Source of the DNA: Candidatus Bathyarchaeia archaeon | Lineage (GTDB): Archaea; Thermoproteota; Bathyarchaeia; Bathyarchaeales; Bathycorpusculaceae | Direction: 5' to 3' | DNA: 16,137 nt | Assembly (NCBI GenBank): GCA_038882655.1 | Contig: JAVZNT010000019.1 | Location: 1-16,137 of the forward strand | Shown here: in pieces, positions 1-10,424 of the stretch | How positions within the stretch are numbered: position 1 is the stretch's first letter | How the letters are laid out: every line of letters starts with the position of its first letter | Translations under genes and position numbers: made by a program | Notes under the pieces: generated by a model | Seen by the model: only the letters and a program-made list of their open reading frames with translations | Databases searched by the model: none | Told to the model about the DNA's origin: nothing

Positions 1-105
1 ACCAGGATGCGGGTTAGTTTCGAGAAGCTCCCTTAACTCGCTTTCGACGAGAATCTCCTCGGTTGGTGGTCTCTTAATTAGGTCTATTTTTGTTTCTATG
101 TCCAA
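1..105 (-). CDS. tyrS: Tyrosine--tRNA ligase, N-terminal 35 codons (continues beyond the left edge)
   Basis: Manual translation from TTG at 105 gives MDIETKIDLIKRPPTEEILVESELRELLETNPHPG, closely resembling the archaeal TyrRS N-terminus (MDIEERI.L..+PTEE++T...LR.L). A TATA-like TTTTAAG lies on the minus strand at 149-143. The HIGH motif is outside the window. Confidence 0.85.
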   Translation of the reverse strand, partial: MDIETKIDLIKRPPTEEILVESELRELLETNPHPG

Positions 106-148
106 GACTGGTCAAGCCTTCTACATTTACGCCAAACATAAACTTAAA

Positions 149-392
149 AGTTGTTTCGCGGGCGCTTATTGTCTCCCACGTTACCTATCACTTAACCTCA
201 TTGTGGAGCCATGCGCTCCCCTTGGTTAAGCTCTCTCCGGCGTGGGAGGTTTGGCGCCCGCGCCCGCCGGTGTCCCATGTTTGGGTAAACCCGCCTTCAC
301 GGCAACAAGCGTTTTTGCGCTTGCCGCTCTGTTGGGTCCGTCGGCATGGATTTATCCCGGCGGGATTAAGGCTCCGCAAAAGGTTCATCGCC
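149..392 (-). ncRNA. Structured non-coding RNA, probable box H/ACA-type guide RNA with K-turns
   Basis: GC-rich island of nested helices: 157-165/254-262, 173-180/241-248, 191-197/224-230, 205-209/215-219, 263-270/357-364, 275-279/345-349, 302-311/318-327. K-turn patterns at 370-392 and 297-329. ACA triplets follow each inner hairpin and a third lies at 154-152 before UUUU. G-U pairs and purine-rich loops favour the minus strand. Confidence 0.65.
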
Positions 393-462
393 AATTCTAG
401 TCTAAGCCTTTACGGAATTAAATGTTGCTGTTTTAAAAGGTGAAGGTCATATTTGTTGCTGA

Positions 463-630
463 TTTTCGGAAGCCTACATAACCATAAATGGTGAGGGTGT
501 AACATCCCTTATTGCCATTGCAGATGAGGGTACGTCCATCCTTTTGGGCGTGACAGCCCTTGAACTTTTGGAGTTGCAGGTTGACCCAGTTAGTGGAAAA
601 CTTGTACCCATGGAGCTAATGATTCTTTAA
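463..630 (+). pseudogene. C-terminal remnant of a clan AA (retropepsin-like) aspartic protease
   Basis: The frame reads FSEAYITINGEGVTSLIAIADEGTSILLGVTALELLELQVDPVSGKLVPMELMIL*. LLGVTALE...VDPVSGKL matches the typical C-terminus of archaeal clan AA proteases. An in-frame TGA lies at 460-462, and there is no DTG motif or usable upstream start. Confidence 0.65.
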
Positions 631-711
631 GCCGTAGGCTTTTGGAATTTAAGGCTGGTTTTAGGCTTATTTTCTCTACCCCCTTCCTCTCTAGAATTTT
701 GCCTATTAAAA

Positions 712-750
712 TGTCAATTTTGTTGTTGGTGGGGAACTGCAAAATTGATA
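712..750. terminator. AT-rich inverted repeat just downstream of pheT, possible terminator
   Basis: TGTCAATTTTG (712-722) pairs with CAAAATTGATA (740-750). It lies between the convergent pheT and the protease remnant. Confidence 0.3.
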
Positions 751-757
751 GCCCCCT

Positions 758-2425
758 CTAGATTTTTCTTTGTAGTAGCCATTCTAGGTCTATTTCGAGG
801 CTTGCTGTTGGGTTTTCTAGTTCAAAGTTGTTTAGGACTTGTGGGTGGACTTCGCCTAGAACCCCAATTTGTTTATTGCCTATTTTGATGGCTGCCGTTC
901 TGCCTTGCAAGAAGCTTGGATGTTTCGCCTCTTTTATTTGCCAGTTTGTTAAGCCTAGGTTGGCAAGGAGAGCCTCGCATGTGGATTTTATTTCTGTGTA
1001 GTTGGCTGTTGAGTGGCATGTTACCGCTGCCAAGTGTAAGCGTCTCTCACACATAGTTTCTAGTCGACGGTTTATTTTCGCCACGTCTGAAACTTCAAAA
1101 AGCTTTTGGGGGTAGCTTTCATGCTTGTTTTCAGCTAGGTTCTTTAAAAGTCCGGGTAGGAGCGTCTCCCTCATTATGGTGTATTCAGCTGACACTGGGT
1201 TTGCAAGGCGCACAGGGTTTTCTGGTGTGAGCCTCATAAGCTCGTAGTGGATTCTCTCGTTTGTTAGGGTGAAATTCATAACCTCCAAGAAGCCTAAACC
1301 AGACATTATTTGGCGAACGGTGTCCGCCAACTTGTTTGCTGGATGCTTTTCGCCAACGGTAACAGTGGCGGGTATTGTTGGTTCTAAACGATGATAGCCG
1401 TAGCCTATGGCAACTTCCTCGACAAGGTCTATTTCATGCATTATATCAATTCTGTATGGTGGAATGGCAACTTCTAGAATCCCTTTCTCAACGGTTTCCG
1501 CGTCCAGTCGGCACTTTTGCAGGCATTTCACGGCTTCAGCCTCTGAAAGCCTTAAACCCAGCATTCTGTTGGCATAGTTTAACCTAAGCCCCATTTTTTC
1601 AGACTCAAGATTTGGTGAAACCACTATGCGGTCTGGATAATGCACGGTGACCTTTTCCAGTTTGCCGCCCATGTCGGCTAGCGCTGTGGCTAAAACTTTT
1701 AGGCTTTTTTCCACAGCCTCAAAGCTCGGTCCAGTAACATCTAAGAAAAAGTTTCGCGTATTGGTGTCCACTCTTGTGAGTTCACCATTTATTATCGGCG
1801 GCATCGACAAAACCCGTCCATATTTGTCGATTAGTAGCGGATATTTGGGTGCCCAGTCAATTAAGTGGCGGTAAGCCACGCCCTTTTCATGTCTCTCAAG
1901 AATCTCTTTGGGCGTCATTTCCTCTGTCTTGCCAAGTGGAGTAAATTTGACACTTGTCGGCTCGACAGCCGTGTATGTAAAAGGCTGTTCAACAACATCT
2001 AAGTTGTGGATTCCGATAGACGCTTTCTTGCGATCTCTGCCAATTCCCCAGTGGAGGTCTTCTTGCATATCCATAAGCTCAGCAACAGCATCCTCGTCCA
2101 ACCTTACGTCTCGGACTACGGCGGCAAGCATGTAGGGTCTAACGGTGGCAACAGCTTTGTCCACTTTAAGTGTTGTTTTAGACTCTTCCGCATGGTATCT
2201 TGGCATTCCGGTCTCCAGTTCCAAGAAACCTTTTAACGCTCGCGCCACACCAGCATAACTGCAGAAGTCTATACGGTTTGGGTTGTACTCAGCCTTCACA
2301 TAGTCTTCGCCTGTCTCCTCCAAATCAAAGCCTATCCATGGAAGCCACTTTGTCAAGTCTTCAACAGCCACGGGCTTGCCCAAAAACTTCGAAAAACGCT
2401 CTACGTGAAGCGTTATTACTGGCAT
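758..2425 (-). CDS. pheT: Phenylalanine--tRNA ligase beta subunit (archaeal type)
   Basis: Motifs MPVITL, EYNPNRID, GRDRKKASIGIHNLD, PPIING, PPYRIDIMHEIDLVEEVAIGYGY and GEVHPQVLNNF. Start placed at ATG 2425, overlapping the pheS end by 10 nt, rather than the track's 2446. Confidence 0.97.
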   Translation of the reverse strand: MPVITLHVERFSKFLGKPVAVEDLTKWLPWIGFDLEETGEDYVKAEYNPNRIDFCSYAGVARALKGFLELETGMPRYHAEESKTTLKVDKAVATVRPYMLAAVVRDVRLDEDAVAELMDMQEDLHWGIGRDRKKASIGIHNLDVVEQPFTYTAVEPTSVKFTPLGKTEEMTPKEILERHEKGVAYRHLIDWAPKYPLLIDKYGRVLSMPPIINGELTRVDTNTRNFFLDVTGPSFEAVEKSLKVLATALADMGGKLEKVTVHYPDRIVVSPNLESEKMGLRLNYANRMLGLRLSEAEAVKCLQKCRLDAETVEKGILEVAIPPYRIDIMHEIDLVEEVAIGYGYHRLEPTIPATVTVGEKHPANKLADTVRQIMSGLGFLEVMNFTLTNERIHYELMRLTPENPVRLANPVSAEYTIMRETLLPGLLKNLAENKHESYPQKLFEVSDVAKINRRLETMCERRLHLAAVTCHSTANYTEIKSTCEALLANLGLTNWQIKEAKHPSFLQGRTAAIKIGNKQIGVLGEVHPQVLNNFELENPTASLEIDLEWLLQRKI

Positions 2426-3924
2426 AGGGGTGTCCTCCTCAACCATCCCAAATTATTCGCATACAACAGCCTAACATCATCCAAGCCAAGCTCAATCATG
2501 GCTAGACGCTCCAGCCCGCCGCCCCAAGCCAAAACTGGACATTTAACCCTTACTGGCGCCAAAACTTCTGGACGGAAAACTCCCATACCACAAAGTTCTA
2601 TCCAACGCCTAAGCTTCGGATGGTAAGCCACAGCTTGAGCTGAGGGCTCCGTGTATGGAAAGTAGCTTGGCCAAAACTCTATTTTTTCAATTCCAAACTT
2701 TGTGTAAAAGGTTTTTAGGGTTCCCATCAAATCACGGAGTGTAACCTTTTTGTCGACAACTATGCCCTCAATTTGGTGGAACTCGGCCAAGTGTTTGTAT
2801 GTAACCTGTTCGTTTCTGTAAACCCTATCTACCGAGAAAACCTTAATCGGCGGCTTCTTATGCTTAGCCAGATACTTTATTGTTTCAGCTGTTGTGTGGG
2901 TTCGCAGAACAAGTCTCTTGGCTTCTTCTGGGTTCCACTTGTAACGCCAACCCTTAGAGCCGGTAACCCAACCGTCTTCATGGGTTTTCGCCACAGCTTC
3001 CACAAGCCTTTTTGATGACAATCGTCCGGTCTGCGGGTTAGCCAAATAAAATGTGTCCATCATTTCGCGGGCTGGGTGGTCTTGAGGCTGGAACAGAGCG
3101 TCAAAGTTCCAGAAAGCTGTCTCCACCAATGGTCCACGAATCTCCGTGAAGCCCATCTCCAAAAAGATTTCCCGGGCACGCTTGATAATCTGCTGTAACG
3201 GATGCATCTTGCCCGGATAAACCGCTGGTCCGGGAGCAGCCACATCAAACCTTGTGAGTTTTATGCTTTTCCAACGCCCAGAAATTATGAGCTCTGGGGT
3301 TAGCTGCGTCACTTCCTCAACCATTTCCAAACCTTTCCTTACGGTTTTCCAGCCTTCCGCTGTTAGCTCCAGTTCGCGGTAAGCCTTCTCCTCCAATTCC
3401 ACAAGCTTGCGCTTTCTGAGAATGTCTAAGGCTTCTTTTAGCTCTCTGCTTAAATCATCAACTATAATGGAGCGTTTCTCGAAAATTGTGGCTAGAAGCT
3501 TCTCATCATCCCCGAGCGGCGGCTCAGCTTTCACGTTTAAAGTGCACCTTTTGCCTTTTATTGCTCCCAAATGCTTCCTTTTCAGCCAGCCCAAAGCAAT
3601 TGGCACAAGACCAGCACCTAAACCAGCCTCTCTGGCAGCTTCATCCACACTTGCCTCGCCGCCAAGCCTCAACAAGGCGCGGAGAAGACGCCGCTCTGGC
3701 AAGCCGTACTGAGCATAGCCTTCGCCTTCCTCGTTTAATGTGGCTACGTTCCATTTCCGCTCATGAATTTTCACAAGGTTCCTTGAAGAAAGCGTTAAAG
3801 CGGCTCTCATAACAGCGGCGTGTGCCAAACTACTTTTTTCAGCTATATCTTCAACAGAGGCTTTTCCGCCCAGCCCATGCAGTGCCATTAAAGTTTTTCT
3901 TTCATGAAGCCGCAAACCAGCCAT
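2416..3924 (-). CDS. pheS: Phenylalanine--tRNA ligase alpha subunit (archaeal type)
   Basis: Motifs FWNFDALFQPQDHPAREMMDTF, LRTHTT, VYRNE...HLAEFHQIEG, YFPYTEPS and GGGLERLAM. ATG 3924 is preceded by an AGGTG RBS. Confidence 0.97.
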   Translation of the reverse strand: MAGLRLHERKTLMALHGLGGKASVEDIAEKSSLAHAAVMRAALTLSSRNLVKIHERKWNVATLNEEGEGYAQYGLPERRLLRALLRLGGEASVDEAAREAGLGAGLVPIALGWLKRKHLGAIKGKRCTLNVKAEPPLGDDEKLLATIFEKRSIIVDDLSRELKEALDILRKRKLVELEEKAYRELELTAEGWKTVRKGLEMVEEVTQLTPELIISGRWKSIKLTRFDVAAPGPAVYPGKMHPLQQIIKRAREIFLEMGFTEIRGPLVETAFWNFDALFQPQDHPAREMMDTFYLANPQTGRLSSKRLVEAVAKTHEDGWVTGSKGWRYKWNPEEAKRLVLRTHTTAETIKYLAKHKKPPIKVFSVDRVYRNEQVTYKHLAEFHQIEGIVVDKKVTLRDLMGTLKTFYTKFGIEKIEFWPSYFPYTEPSAQAVAYHPKLRRWIELCGMGVFRPEVLAPVRVKCPVLAWGGGLERLAMIELGLDDVRLLYANNLGWLRRTPLCQ

Positions 3925-4183
3925 CTTCAAACACCTAAGCAATGGTTTAAGCTATTTACCGTGTTGTAATGCTTACATAAGAGTTGTTGGAGAGTTTTAA
4001 AACTATGCCCTTTAAAAGCGAAAACAAAGCCGCTTCTCATGTAAATTGGCGGGACATACCTTCACCAGCAACATTTGAATGGAAACGTCAACCCCATATT
4101 TATAGCTTATTCCAGATGAGTTTTTCACAAAATTTAATACGTTTCATAGGAATTGTATAAGGAAGCCGAAAAAGGCTTGGAAA

Positions 4184-10298: not shown

Positions 10299-10424
10299 GG
10301 GGCTGCCAGCTTTCCCGGCTTCGCGTGGCCGAAGACCACACTACAACCGGGAACGGAGCGCGGTTTAACTTCCGAGTTCGGAATGGGATCGGGTGGAACC
10401 CGCGCCCTATGGCCGGCAAACCCC
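10299..10424 (-). rRNA. rrf: 5S ribosomal RNA (stand-alone)
   Basis: The minus strand contains GGCCAUAG...CCCGAUCCCAUUCCGAACUCGGAAGUUAA with terminal helix UGCCGGC/GCUGGCA (10412-10418/10304-10310). A BRE/TATA-like GCGAAAAGTTAAT lies upstream. The ends are uncertain by a few nt. Confidence 0.97.

Follow-up and report, generated by a model that had tools for sequence, protein, structure and literature searches.

An unannotated double H/ACA-type guide RNA of Bathyarchaeia with clamped units and a probable circular form

What kind of RNA lies on the minus strand near the edge of contig JAVZNT010000019.1 (assembly GCA_038882655.1) of a Candidatus Bathyarchaeia archaeon, just ahead of tyrS? The window, meaning the whole 16,137-nucleotide (nt) stretch that was analysed, had been given a sequence-only reading, which proposed an RNA of about 245 nt with two H/ACA-like units, each held inside a further outer helix, and left open whether this was an atypical H/ACA architecture or a new class of L7Ae-bound RNA. 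In this study, we observed that positions 155-392, leader included, encode an unannotated two-hairpin guide RNA of Bathyarchaeia. That it is an H/ACA-type RNA with kink-turns (K-turns) and atypical internal ACA boxes was borne out, whereas the idea of a new class was given up, because both pockets match the three 23S ribosomal RNA (rRNA) sites of the Haloferax guide sR-h45, so that the RNA is a guide of a known kind. What is new in this double H/ACA guide are its clamped units, the internal ACA boxes, the removed K-turn leader and a probable circle. We consider it likely, on the whole of the evidence set out below, that the RNA is a double H/ACA guide for helix 69 and a second 23S site, UGGGU...CCGUC, and that it is clamped and circularised.

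Fold, conservation and H/ACA identity

With reference to the minus strand, the order from 392 down to about 150 is a K-turn hairpin (392-370), five bases, clamped unit 1, clamped unit 2 and the trailer AAACAACUUUUAAG. The elements of this RNA are as follows.

370..392, minus strand: leader hairpin with a K-turn (box C/D-like GCGAUGA ... GA-GCC), made up of GGC 392-390, GAU 389-387, GA 386-385, GA 374-373 and GCC 372-370; outside the abundant RNA
155..364, minus strand: mature RNA of about 209-210 nt as seen in RNA contigs, probably circular, with C364 joined to A156 or A155
357..364, minus strand: 5' strand of outer helix 1, CCCGCCGG; partner 263-270, 8 base pairs (bp)
349-345 / 279-275, minus strand: lower stem of unit 1
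344-337, minus strand: 5' pocket strand of unit 1, CCGACGGA
339-334 / 292-287, minus strand: upper stem of unit 1, GGACCC/GGGUUU
293..336, minus strand: upper-stem CCC/GGG, K-turn and variable apical stem-loop of unit 1
329-328, 301-299 and 298-297, minus strand: K-turn of unit 1 (GA, bulge CGU and GA, respectively)
327-318 / 311-302, minus strand: apical stem of unit 1, 10 bp
289-280, minus strand: 3' pocket strand of unit 1, UUUACCCAAA, between GGG 292-290 and lower stem 279-275
273-271, minus strand: ACA of unit 1, preceded by G274, with outer helix 1 directly after it
254..270, minus strand: continuous strand CCGGCGGG-CGCGGGCGC, the 3' strand of helix 1 abutting the 5' strand of helix 2; proposed splint
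248-241 / 180-173, minus strand: lower stem of unit 2
240-231, minus strand: 5' pocket strand of unit 2, CCGGAGAGAG
230-225 / 196-191, minus strand: upper stem of unit 2
197..224, minus strand: K-turn of unit 2 (A222-G199, A223-A198, bulge 202-200) and conserved cap GAGCG...GCUC
190-181, minus strand: 3' pocket strand of unit 2, UGAUAGGUAA
172-170, minus strand: ACA of unit 2, directly after the lower stem and 4 nt before outer helix 2
157..165, minus strand: 3' strand of outer helix 2, GCGCCCGCG; partner 254-262, 9 bp
154..156, minus strand: conserved A-N-A after outer helix 2, of which A156 (A155 in one contig) is kept at the joint

RNAfold returned exactly this layout of two clamped hairpins, with an energy of -106.8 kcal/mol against -82.2 +/- 4.7 for 200 dinucleotide shuffles (z = -5.29), none of which was as stable. 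The outer helices (364-357/270-263 and 262-254/165-157) are perfect and follow each other without a linker, as had been read from the sequence, and unit 2 was likewise confirmed in all its elements, including the ACA directly behind the stem. Unit 1 also contains every element described for it, but covariation supports just the upper three pairs of its GGACCC/GGGUUU stem; some relatives lack the lower three (G-U, G-U, A-U), which are thus more likely part of the pocket. A third ACA, which had been placed at 154-152, gave way to a different conserved element, the A-N-A at 156-154, which follows outer helix 2 in 84 of the 87 loci where the helix was found.

Covariation was counted in an alignment of 26 relatives with 61 pairs and 1488 cells. 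We observed that 91.9% of these cells are paired, compared with 32-44% when the partners are slid by 1-3 columns, and that 29 of the 61 pairs have changed on both sides, with none of 500 shuffles reaching any of these measures. Outer helix 1 is 100% paired with two of its eight pairs changed on both sides (G-C to A-U in eight sequences, C-G to U-A in three), and outer helix 2 is 96.5% paired with three of nine changed. The lower stems show changes on both sides in 5/5 (unit 1) and 5/8 (unit 2) pairs and the upper stems in 2/6 and 4/7, respectively, while the first two apical pairs of unit 1 covary through 5 and 13 sequences changed on both sides. The absence of a linker between the two outer helices is common to all 26 aligned sequences.

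Motifs were also counted across 101 usable loci. Of the 89 with the junction text, 80 show a 7/7 upstream partner for the 7 nt that precede helix 2, and in 87 of 89 outer helix 2 is itself 7/7 paired. AU stands directly before outer helix 1 in 74 of 80, and 70 of 80 carry the leader motif GCRAUGA no more than 75 nt ahead of that helix. Invariant letters comprise GACGGA (26 and 28 sequences), UACCCA and GACA in unit 1, and AGAGAGC (in 48 diverse sequences and also retained by other classes) and G.G.U..GU in unit 2, whose K-turn and cap keep A, G, GAGCG, GCUC, C and UGA. Homologues next to tyrS, which the sequence-only reading had named as the material to be compared, displayed strong covariation with the positions of the ACA and the K-turn kept.

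The clamped units are not confined to Bathyarchaeia. When 151 genomes of the phylum were searched with a covariance model of unit 2, 48 of them gave a match, including whole families outside the class (14/15, 8/8 and 3/3) and none of the members of several others (0/19, 0/13 and 0/13). What these distant RNAs retain next to the upper stem is GAGAGAG(C) in the 5' strand and (G)UGUUAG in the 3' strand. In 20 matches from other orders and classes, all eight outer pairs of unit 2 have changed on both sides with 96.7% paired, and 26 of 27 pairs covary, in an alignment which was fitted to the model and so leans that way. Units 1 and 2 are separate neighbouring genes in the other classes, each within an outer helix of its own of 9-15 bp and often behind a K-turn hairpin; a hairpin of the leader type stands before unit 1. 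Since the outer helices covary both in Bathyarchaeia and in classes where the units are separate, we conclude that both are real and old.

One of the other families (loci L259-L260, L264 and L268-L273), with A+T-rich genomes of 1.2-1.6 megabases (Mb), has a K-turn hairpin followed by clamped unit 1; 60-100 nt of A+T-rich spacer then separate this from clamped unit 2, whose outer helix has 10-12 bp. The fused single gene of Bathyarchaeia thus seems to be matched here by two genes.

Turning to the identity of the RNA, both units consist of a lower stem, a large internal loop (the pocket), an upper stem, a K-turn and an ACA. The ACA follows the lower stem of both units in 26/26 sequences and is kept in other classes, and the G:A pairs of the K-turn are invariant in both. 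The K-turn spacing is 9 in each unit, counted in unit 2 as G199-A222 and A198-A223, then G197-C224 and 6 bp, and in unit 1 as GA/GA, four mostly non-standard positions and CCC/GGG; the literature gives a K-turn-to-pocket distance of 9-10 positions or a helix 2 of 5-6 bp. Pocket letters beside the upper stems are invariant and those beside the lower stems vary, as expected of a guide for an invariant target. Genes for Nop10, Cbf5 (DKCLD domain) and Gar1 were found in the window's own genome and in 16/21, 18/21 and 18/21 genomes, respectively. L7Ae would bind at the K-turns, and a guide ribonucleoprotein (RNP) would assemble.

The DKCLD domain of Cbf5 sits in frames of only 78-118 amino acids in most genomes (for example G000:C8:36757-36897), which suggests a split or intron-bearing cbf5. 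Such genes are described for some Crenarchaeota.

A free single-stranded tail or hinge for the ACA was found in neither unit, covarying outer helices following instead; each unit is shut by an extra G+C helix, and therefore each ACA lies in an internal loop. The RNA resembles the canonical single-hairpin H/ACA small RNAs (sRNAs), such as Pab/Pf of Pyrococcus and sR115 and sR435 of Sulfolobus, in its stem-pocket-stem order, its ACA and a K-turn at the usual distance from the pocket (PMC2651775, PMC11077068). Those sRNAs carry the ACA on a free 3' tail, some 14-15 bases away from the target (PMC2651775, PMC11077068), whereas here a further helix comes right after the ACA of unit 1 and 4 nt after that of unit 2. 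The 3' strands from upper stem to ACA, at 16 (unit 1) and 18 bases (unit 2), are longer than usual and differ in this from the canonical sRNAs. Eukaryotic H/ACA small nucleolar RNAs (snoRNAs) likewise carry two guide hairpins per RNA and include guides for helix 69 (U19, snR191), but they lack a K-turn, their H and ACA boxes are single-stranded and the molecules are linear.

No rival family emerged from Rfam. No Rfam family covers the 155-392 RNA, and a search of region 1-760 at E <= 10 gave two irrelevant matches only. The sole gathering-level Rfam match in the window is a stand-alone 5S rRNA gene (10301-10420, minus strand, 78.3 bits). Identity with the RNase P RNA or the signal recognition particle (SRP) RNA was considered and rejected, as neither has an Rfam match in the window; the five relatives searched all harbor ordinary RNase P and SRP RNAs elsewhere (191-219 and 164-186 bits, respectively), so that the clamped RNA is neither. 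The window's own genome is a 1.02-Mb assembly, 84% complete, in which RNase P RNA, SRP RNA and rRNA genes were undetected. A search of one literature collection found no description of this RNA. In three relatives, the 16S and 23S genes are unlinked to each other.

Candidate targets in 23S rRNA

Judging from the pocket sequences and by analogy with a characterised guide, the RNA most likely directs pseudouridine (Psi) formation at conserved 23S sites. For unit 2, the candidate is helix 69, with the site UAAC-UCUGA-CUCUCUC: GAGAGAG of the guide is complementary to CUCUCUC and GUUA to UAAC. When the GAGAGAG and UGUUAG cores were used with Watson-Crick pairs only, helix 69 was the sole site in the 16S and 23S rRNAs of a same-genus genome, and only 2 of 300 shuffled rRNAs gave any site, under a threshold set post hoc. 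For unit 1, ACCCA is complementary to UGGGU and GACGG to CCGUC, so the site would be UGGGU-UUAGA-CCGUC, which is one of two Watson-Crick sites found for this unit, the other being helix 71. Both target texts are identical in the large-subunit (LSU) rRNA genes of several classes (8/8 and 7/8), and this constancy fits the invariant pockets. We take the two helix 69 uridines to be E. coli U1915 and U1917 and the third U of UGGGUUUAG to be E. coli 2586, by our own alignment.

The spacing of the two sites can be set beside the guide rule of a target U about 15 (+/-1) bases from the ACA. Counted back from the ACA of unit 1, Watson-Crick pairing ends at base 13, base 14 faces a U as a U-U apposition, and base 15, which is U288, falls at the third U of UGGGUUUAG; another class, with AACCCA in its guide, gives 14 + 1. 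For unit 2 the spacings are 18 and 20 in the window's genome, and 15 and 17 in that other class. The duplexes would comprise 4+7 bp on helix 69 (3+7 in the window genus) and 5+5 bp on UGGGU...CCGUC. Under the proposed mechanism, the 3' unit would open helix 69 and leave U1915-C-U1917-G-A unpaired for pseudouridylation, while the 5' unit would pair with UGGGU and CCGUC and so place the third U of UGGGUUUAG 15 bases from its ACA. Helix 71 (GGGUAAG-U-UCCG) was rejected as the target of unit 1, since it would leave the invariant A282 unpaired with a spacing of 16-17 and is not kept in other classes, and we rank it below the UGGGUUUAG site.

The analogy is with sR-h45 of Haloferax, a guide for three 23S sites and the only double H/ACA RNA of archaea to have been characterised in depth (2020, PMC7075261). 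Its 5' stem-loop directs Psi2605, which lies two bases beyond m3U2603 as the third uridine of a UUU run, and its 3' stem-loop directs Psi1940 and Psi1942 in the unpaired UNUN of helix 69; its SL2 has atypical ACA spacings of 17 and 19, and a UCUG variant is also modified (PMC7075261). The helix 69 loop of Bathyarchaeia reads UCUG, as in that modified variant. Compared by description, the two RNAs are alike in their size of about 200 nt, in two K-turn H/ACA stem-loops each with its own ANA/ACA, and, with the targets predicted here, in the same three sites in the same 5'-to-3' order, with the 5' unit on the UUU of the peptidyl-transferase region and the 3' unit holding the helix 69 uridines in an unusually large unpaired stretch at a long ACA spacing. 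They differ in that sR-h45 has a 56-nt spacer with the H box in a single-stranded hinge, lacks outer helices and has no reported circular form. In the Bathyarchaeia RNA, by contrast, the units abut, the ACAs are clamped, the leader is removed and the ends are apparently ligated.

It is important to note the results that weigh against these target assignments. No canonical target, defined by two arms touching the upper stem with two unpaired bases between them, was detected in the 16S and 23S rRNAs of a same-genus genome, 5S rRNA, RNase P RNA, SRP RNA, 42 transfer RNA (tRNA) loci or the precursor of tRNA-Tyr (pre-tRNA-Tyr). The same search of the whole window genome gave G-U-rich scatter only, and the best match to a tRNA locus was antisense to tRNA-Gln. 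In a relaxed bipartite search, the matches were no better than those of shuffled guides (84, 200 and 194 of 200). The Watson-Crick test of unit 2 was designed after the helix 69 match had been seen, and once G-U pairs are allowed the site is not significant (115/300). The window genus reads GAUA and not GUUA, leaving one mismatch in the 5' arm on helix 69, and a 6+4 Watson-Crick test with the window's own genus returned no site. Unit 1 matches helix 71 (GGGUAA-GU-UCCG) as well, and in another class its 5' pocket strand differs, with almost no second arm. Moreover, both duplexes leave five rRNA bases unpaired, not two to four.

Another reading is an L7Ae-bound structural or scaffold RNA which only resembles H/ACA guides and directs no pseudouridylation, for instance a chaperone of rRNA folding like the eukaryotic snR30. 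Such a role would agree with the missing canonical target, with both ACAs being closed into internal loops and with pocket strands longer than usual, at 16 and 18 bases. However, the letters that could pair with helix 69 and UGGGU...CCGUC are precisely the ones that stay invariant in the pockets, the n+15 spacing of unit 1 is kept in two classes despite differences in sequence, and the unit order and the three sites coincide with those of sR-h45, which deletion and in vitro assay have established as a guide. We consequently regard the scaffold role as very improbable and hold to a pseudouridylation guide.

RNA contigs and the proposed circle

Four public sequencing runs holding the sequence were mapped on window positions 1-900, their contigs coming from relatives with 85-100% likeness. 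Two of them, X18 and X20, are true RNA sequencing (RNA-seq) metatranscriptomes of one study, and the other two, X13 and X19, are DNA-like. In the RNA runs, contig depth in the bins from 151 to 360 ranged over 613-2773 (X18) and 691-2255 (X20). At the upstream border it fell from 2773/757 (X18/X20, bin 331-360) through 170/34 (361-390) to 0 (391-420). It was also 0 in bins 61-150 and 391-690, although contigs of relatives cannot prove an absence of transcription in 1-150 and 391-690. The DNA-like runs covered all 900 nt. A discrete and abundant RNA, for which RNA-seq had been suggested as a check, was thus seen, with contigs over about 155-364 only. The 5' K-turn hairpin of the sequence-only reading is therefore present at 392-370 but is not part of the abundant RNA.

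Head-to-tail joints, at which the sequence goes back to an earlier position, were displayed in X18 and X20 only; the DNA-like runs had none. A 158-nt contig at depth 252.5 runs from 201 to 169, then through AAGCGCCCGCGA, then from 364 to 254. Another joint reads GGCGCCCGCG-A-CCCGCCGG. The joints 364->169 and 353->169 contain letters of the 3' strand of helix 2 and an A, followed by the 5' strand of helix 1, and a loose end at 155 continues into CCCGCCGGGAUAAAUCC, which is the exact text of 364-348. From these letters it follows that A156 (once A155), after outer helix 2, is joined to C364. No such joint was found in DNA: the text of an ACA-to-helix-1 joint occurs in none of 107 genome loci, and a metagenome contig collection gave no match either, although 80 loci taken from it held 19 gene copies, all of them normal and without a joint. 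Taken together, the span of the contigs over 155-364 and the joints indicate that the mature RNA is probably a circle of about 210 nt.

In the maturation that we propose, the transcript would start with the K-turn leader hairpin, which would be cut off before C364, and the 3' trailer would be cut off after A156 or A155, with L7Ae binding each hairpin at its K-turn. Both ends would then lie side by side on CCGGCGGG-CGCGGGCGC, as at a nick in a helix, and be ligated by a putative ligase to a dumbbell circle of about 210 nt, with a 17-bp rod, one bulged A and a guide arm at each end. If strand 270-254 pairs with both ends like a splint, the conserved zero linker is explained. The nucleases and the ligase are postulated. 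RtcB was found in all five genomes searched for it. A search for an Rnl3-type ligase gave no clear candidate, only weak PF09414 matches of 28-35 bits in frames of 569-598 amino acids. A bulge-helix-bulge reading of the cut sites, which would call for two 3-nt bulges on opposite strands with 4 bp of helix between them, was rejected, since the outer helices are perfect and both cuts fall at one point of the coaxial stack. CCCG, the first four bases of the circle, has no CGGG partner in the trailer AAACAACUUUUAAG.

Several observations speak against a circle. No bulge-helix-bulge motif is present. Five or six joints link the ACA plus 0-5 nt to C364 without the 3' strand of helix 2, and the simple model does not account for them; they may be artefacts, or else molecules joined after trimming to the 3' end that H/ACA RNAs usually have, the ACA plus a few bases. 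If an abundant RNA were linear, template switching by reverse transcriptase from one of its ends to the other could also produce such a joint, and the evidence consists of assembled contigs from two runs of one study, and of the RNA of relatives. The same H/ACA guide might accordingly be linear, its outer helices protecting the ends or stabilising the fold and its joints being artefacts of template switching or assembly. The varied 3' points (ACA + 0-5 nt) do resemble ragged linear ends, the joints do come only from contigs of those two runs, the bulge-helix-bulge motif and a clear circularising Rnl3 are lacking, and a heat-stabilised fold would suit relatives from hot springs, as the run labels have it (the labels were not used as evidence). 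Nevertheless, contigs with joints are not rare, with depths of 252.5, 142.7 and 101.9 against 700-2700 overall, and all joints share one base on their 5' side, namely the base with which outer helix 1 begins. Further, a linker of zero, kept in 26/26, is needed by a nick-like ligation site and not by end protection, and circles at low level of the archaeal H/ACA RNA sR109 and of many C/D RNAs are on record. On balance, we judge the linear form unlikely, though by no means negligible, and the circular guide remains our preferred reading.

Circular archaeal RNAs of other kinds offer a comparison (Danan et al. 2012, PMC3326292). The circular C/D box sRNAs of Pyrococcus, Thermococcus and Sulfolobus are similar in having a terminal helix and in being joined head to tail with no need for a bulge-helix-bulge. 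Circular archaeal small RNAs are, however, single-motif molecules of 50-70 nt, and circular reads of the H/ACA RNA sR109 are few (2 and 2) (PMC3326292). Unlike these known archaeal circles, the present RNA is a two-unit guide of 210 nt whose joint is seen at high contig depth and whose two closing helices would stack on one continuous strand.

Locus, tyrosine link, distribution and meaning

The setting of the gene comprises the following features.

415..430, minus strand: promoter-like box CAGCAACAUUUAAUUC upstream of the leader, read from the sequence
143..151, minus strand: AACUUUUAAG, a U-run and/or a TATA-like box of tyrS, with a putative role
1..105, minus strand: start of tyrS, which runs off the window edge

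The text AACAUUUAA(U/C)U also stands upstream of the leader in several relatives (L002, L008, L014 and L089), and the 415..430 box is a candidate TATA box. Against NF006330 (tyrosine--tRNA ligase), the complete tyrS gene from a same-genus relative reaches 419.8 bits. Further upstream on the same strand lie pheT (758-2446) and pheS (2416-3942).

The proximity to tyrS invites a link with the decoding of tyrosine, the RNA being either a cis leader of tyrS (T-box-like, or an operator for TyrRS) or a guide for Psi35 in pre-tRNA-Tyr. Of 107 loci, 81 have tyrS at most 400 nt downstream on the same strand and another 6 have it at a greater distance, a two-intron tRNA-Tyr gene stands in place of tyrS at two loci (L072 and L088), and H/ACA guides for Psi35 exist in Sulfolobales. 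Yet RNA depth is in the hundreds to thousands against 0 to 5.6 on the start of tyrS, 18 of the 107 loci have no tyrS within 1200 nt (2 more have too little room to tell), and the units sit elsewhere in other classes. A Psi35 guide was rejected as well, since neither a comparison of 17 genome pairs nor duplex folding in 14 revealed consistent pairing around U35, and a full-length TruD/Pus7 is present in 20 of 21 genomes. The likeness of the pocket strands to intron text of pre-tRNA-Tyr (GACGGA, ACCCA) was also discarded, being of the same sense and not conserved. A role in tyrosine decoding is thus extremely improbable, and the synteny with tyrS looks inherited rather than functional for a guide directed at 23S rRNA. 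The box AACUUUUAAG is conserved where tyrS follows and absent where it does not, so that it is most simply the promoter of tyrS, perhaps doubling as a U-run terminator of the RNA.

The Bathyarchaeia tRNA-Tyr genes (L072:872-1025, minus strand; L217-L244) are themselves unusual, with 140-200 nt, C1-G72, A73, the anticodon loop CUGUAGA and usually two introns, one in the 5' strand of the anticodon stem and one of 50-75 nt with conserved text after position 37. RF00005 (42 matches in genome G004) and ARAGORN miss these genes, and the gene was located via L072. A tRNA-Gly(UCC) gene (L216:1440-1640, minus strand; L213:1497-1575) has an intron in the region of the anticodon arm; it is unlisted by RF00005 at E <= 0.01 in G004, while ARAGORN calls it in G013 and not in G004. 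A tRNA-Val(CAC)-like gene can be recognised by its 3' part only at L179 (G004:C1:582397-582503), and its 5' part may be interrupted or encoded elsewhere.

Regarding its distribution, a search of DNA detected the RNA in 31 of 41 related genomes, the window's own included. A pattern derived from unit 2 was found in at least 119 records of a species-level genome collection, nearly all of them titled Bathyarchaeota, Bathyarchaeia or Hecatellales. One contig with a bacterial name, Candidatus Sulfotelmatobacter (L067, DATGZD010000020.1), harbors the archaeal RNA together with an archaeal-type tRNA-His gene, probably through an error of binning. In all, 13 of the 107 loci have a tRNA-His gene some hundreds of bases ahead of the RNA (L018, L019, L056, L067, L072, L088, L091, L092, L094-L096, L101 and L115).

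A few copies of the gene are irregular. One genome (G022, contig C84) carries three overlapping partial copies within 5 kilobases, covering query positions 116-269, 58-243 and 17-131, and at L016:361-528 and L076:1266-1389 unrelated A+T-rich DNA stands in place of the 5' half of unit 1. Mobile DNA seems to have inserted into the gene and duplicated its attachment sites, a process familiar from tRNA genes.

This RNA would be the first described pseudouridylation guide of Bathyarchaeia, a widespread and almost uncultured archaeal class, for which three modified ribosomal sites are hereby predicted. The family is missing from Rfam, and the alignments from the present analysis could supply an entry. 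Internal ACA boxes and a probably circular guide challenge the textbook view in which the PUA domain of Cbf5 holds a free ACA tail near the 3' end, and the splint-like stacking of the helices suggests a simple rule for archaeal circularisation without a bulge-helix-bulge. We also advance a bolder proposal, to which we give somewhat less than even credence: in Bathyarchaeia and at least one sister class, in which each clamped unit is a gene of its own, the working H/ACA guides may be obligate covalently closed circles, whose outer helices serve as splints that fix the point of ligation and whose ACA, with no 3' end nearby, Cbf5 would read. If this is true, there would be a lineage of circular, internally boxed H/ACA RNPs with a maturation path of their own, in which a K-turn leader is removed, AU / ANA would signal the cuts and a ligase would seal the nick.

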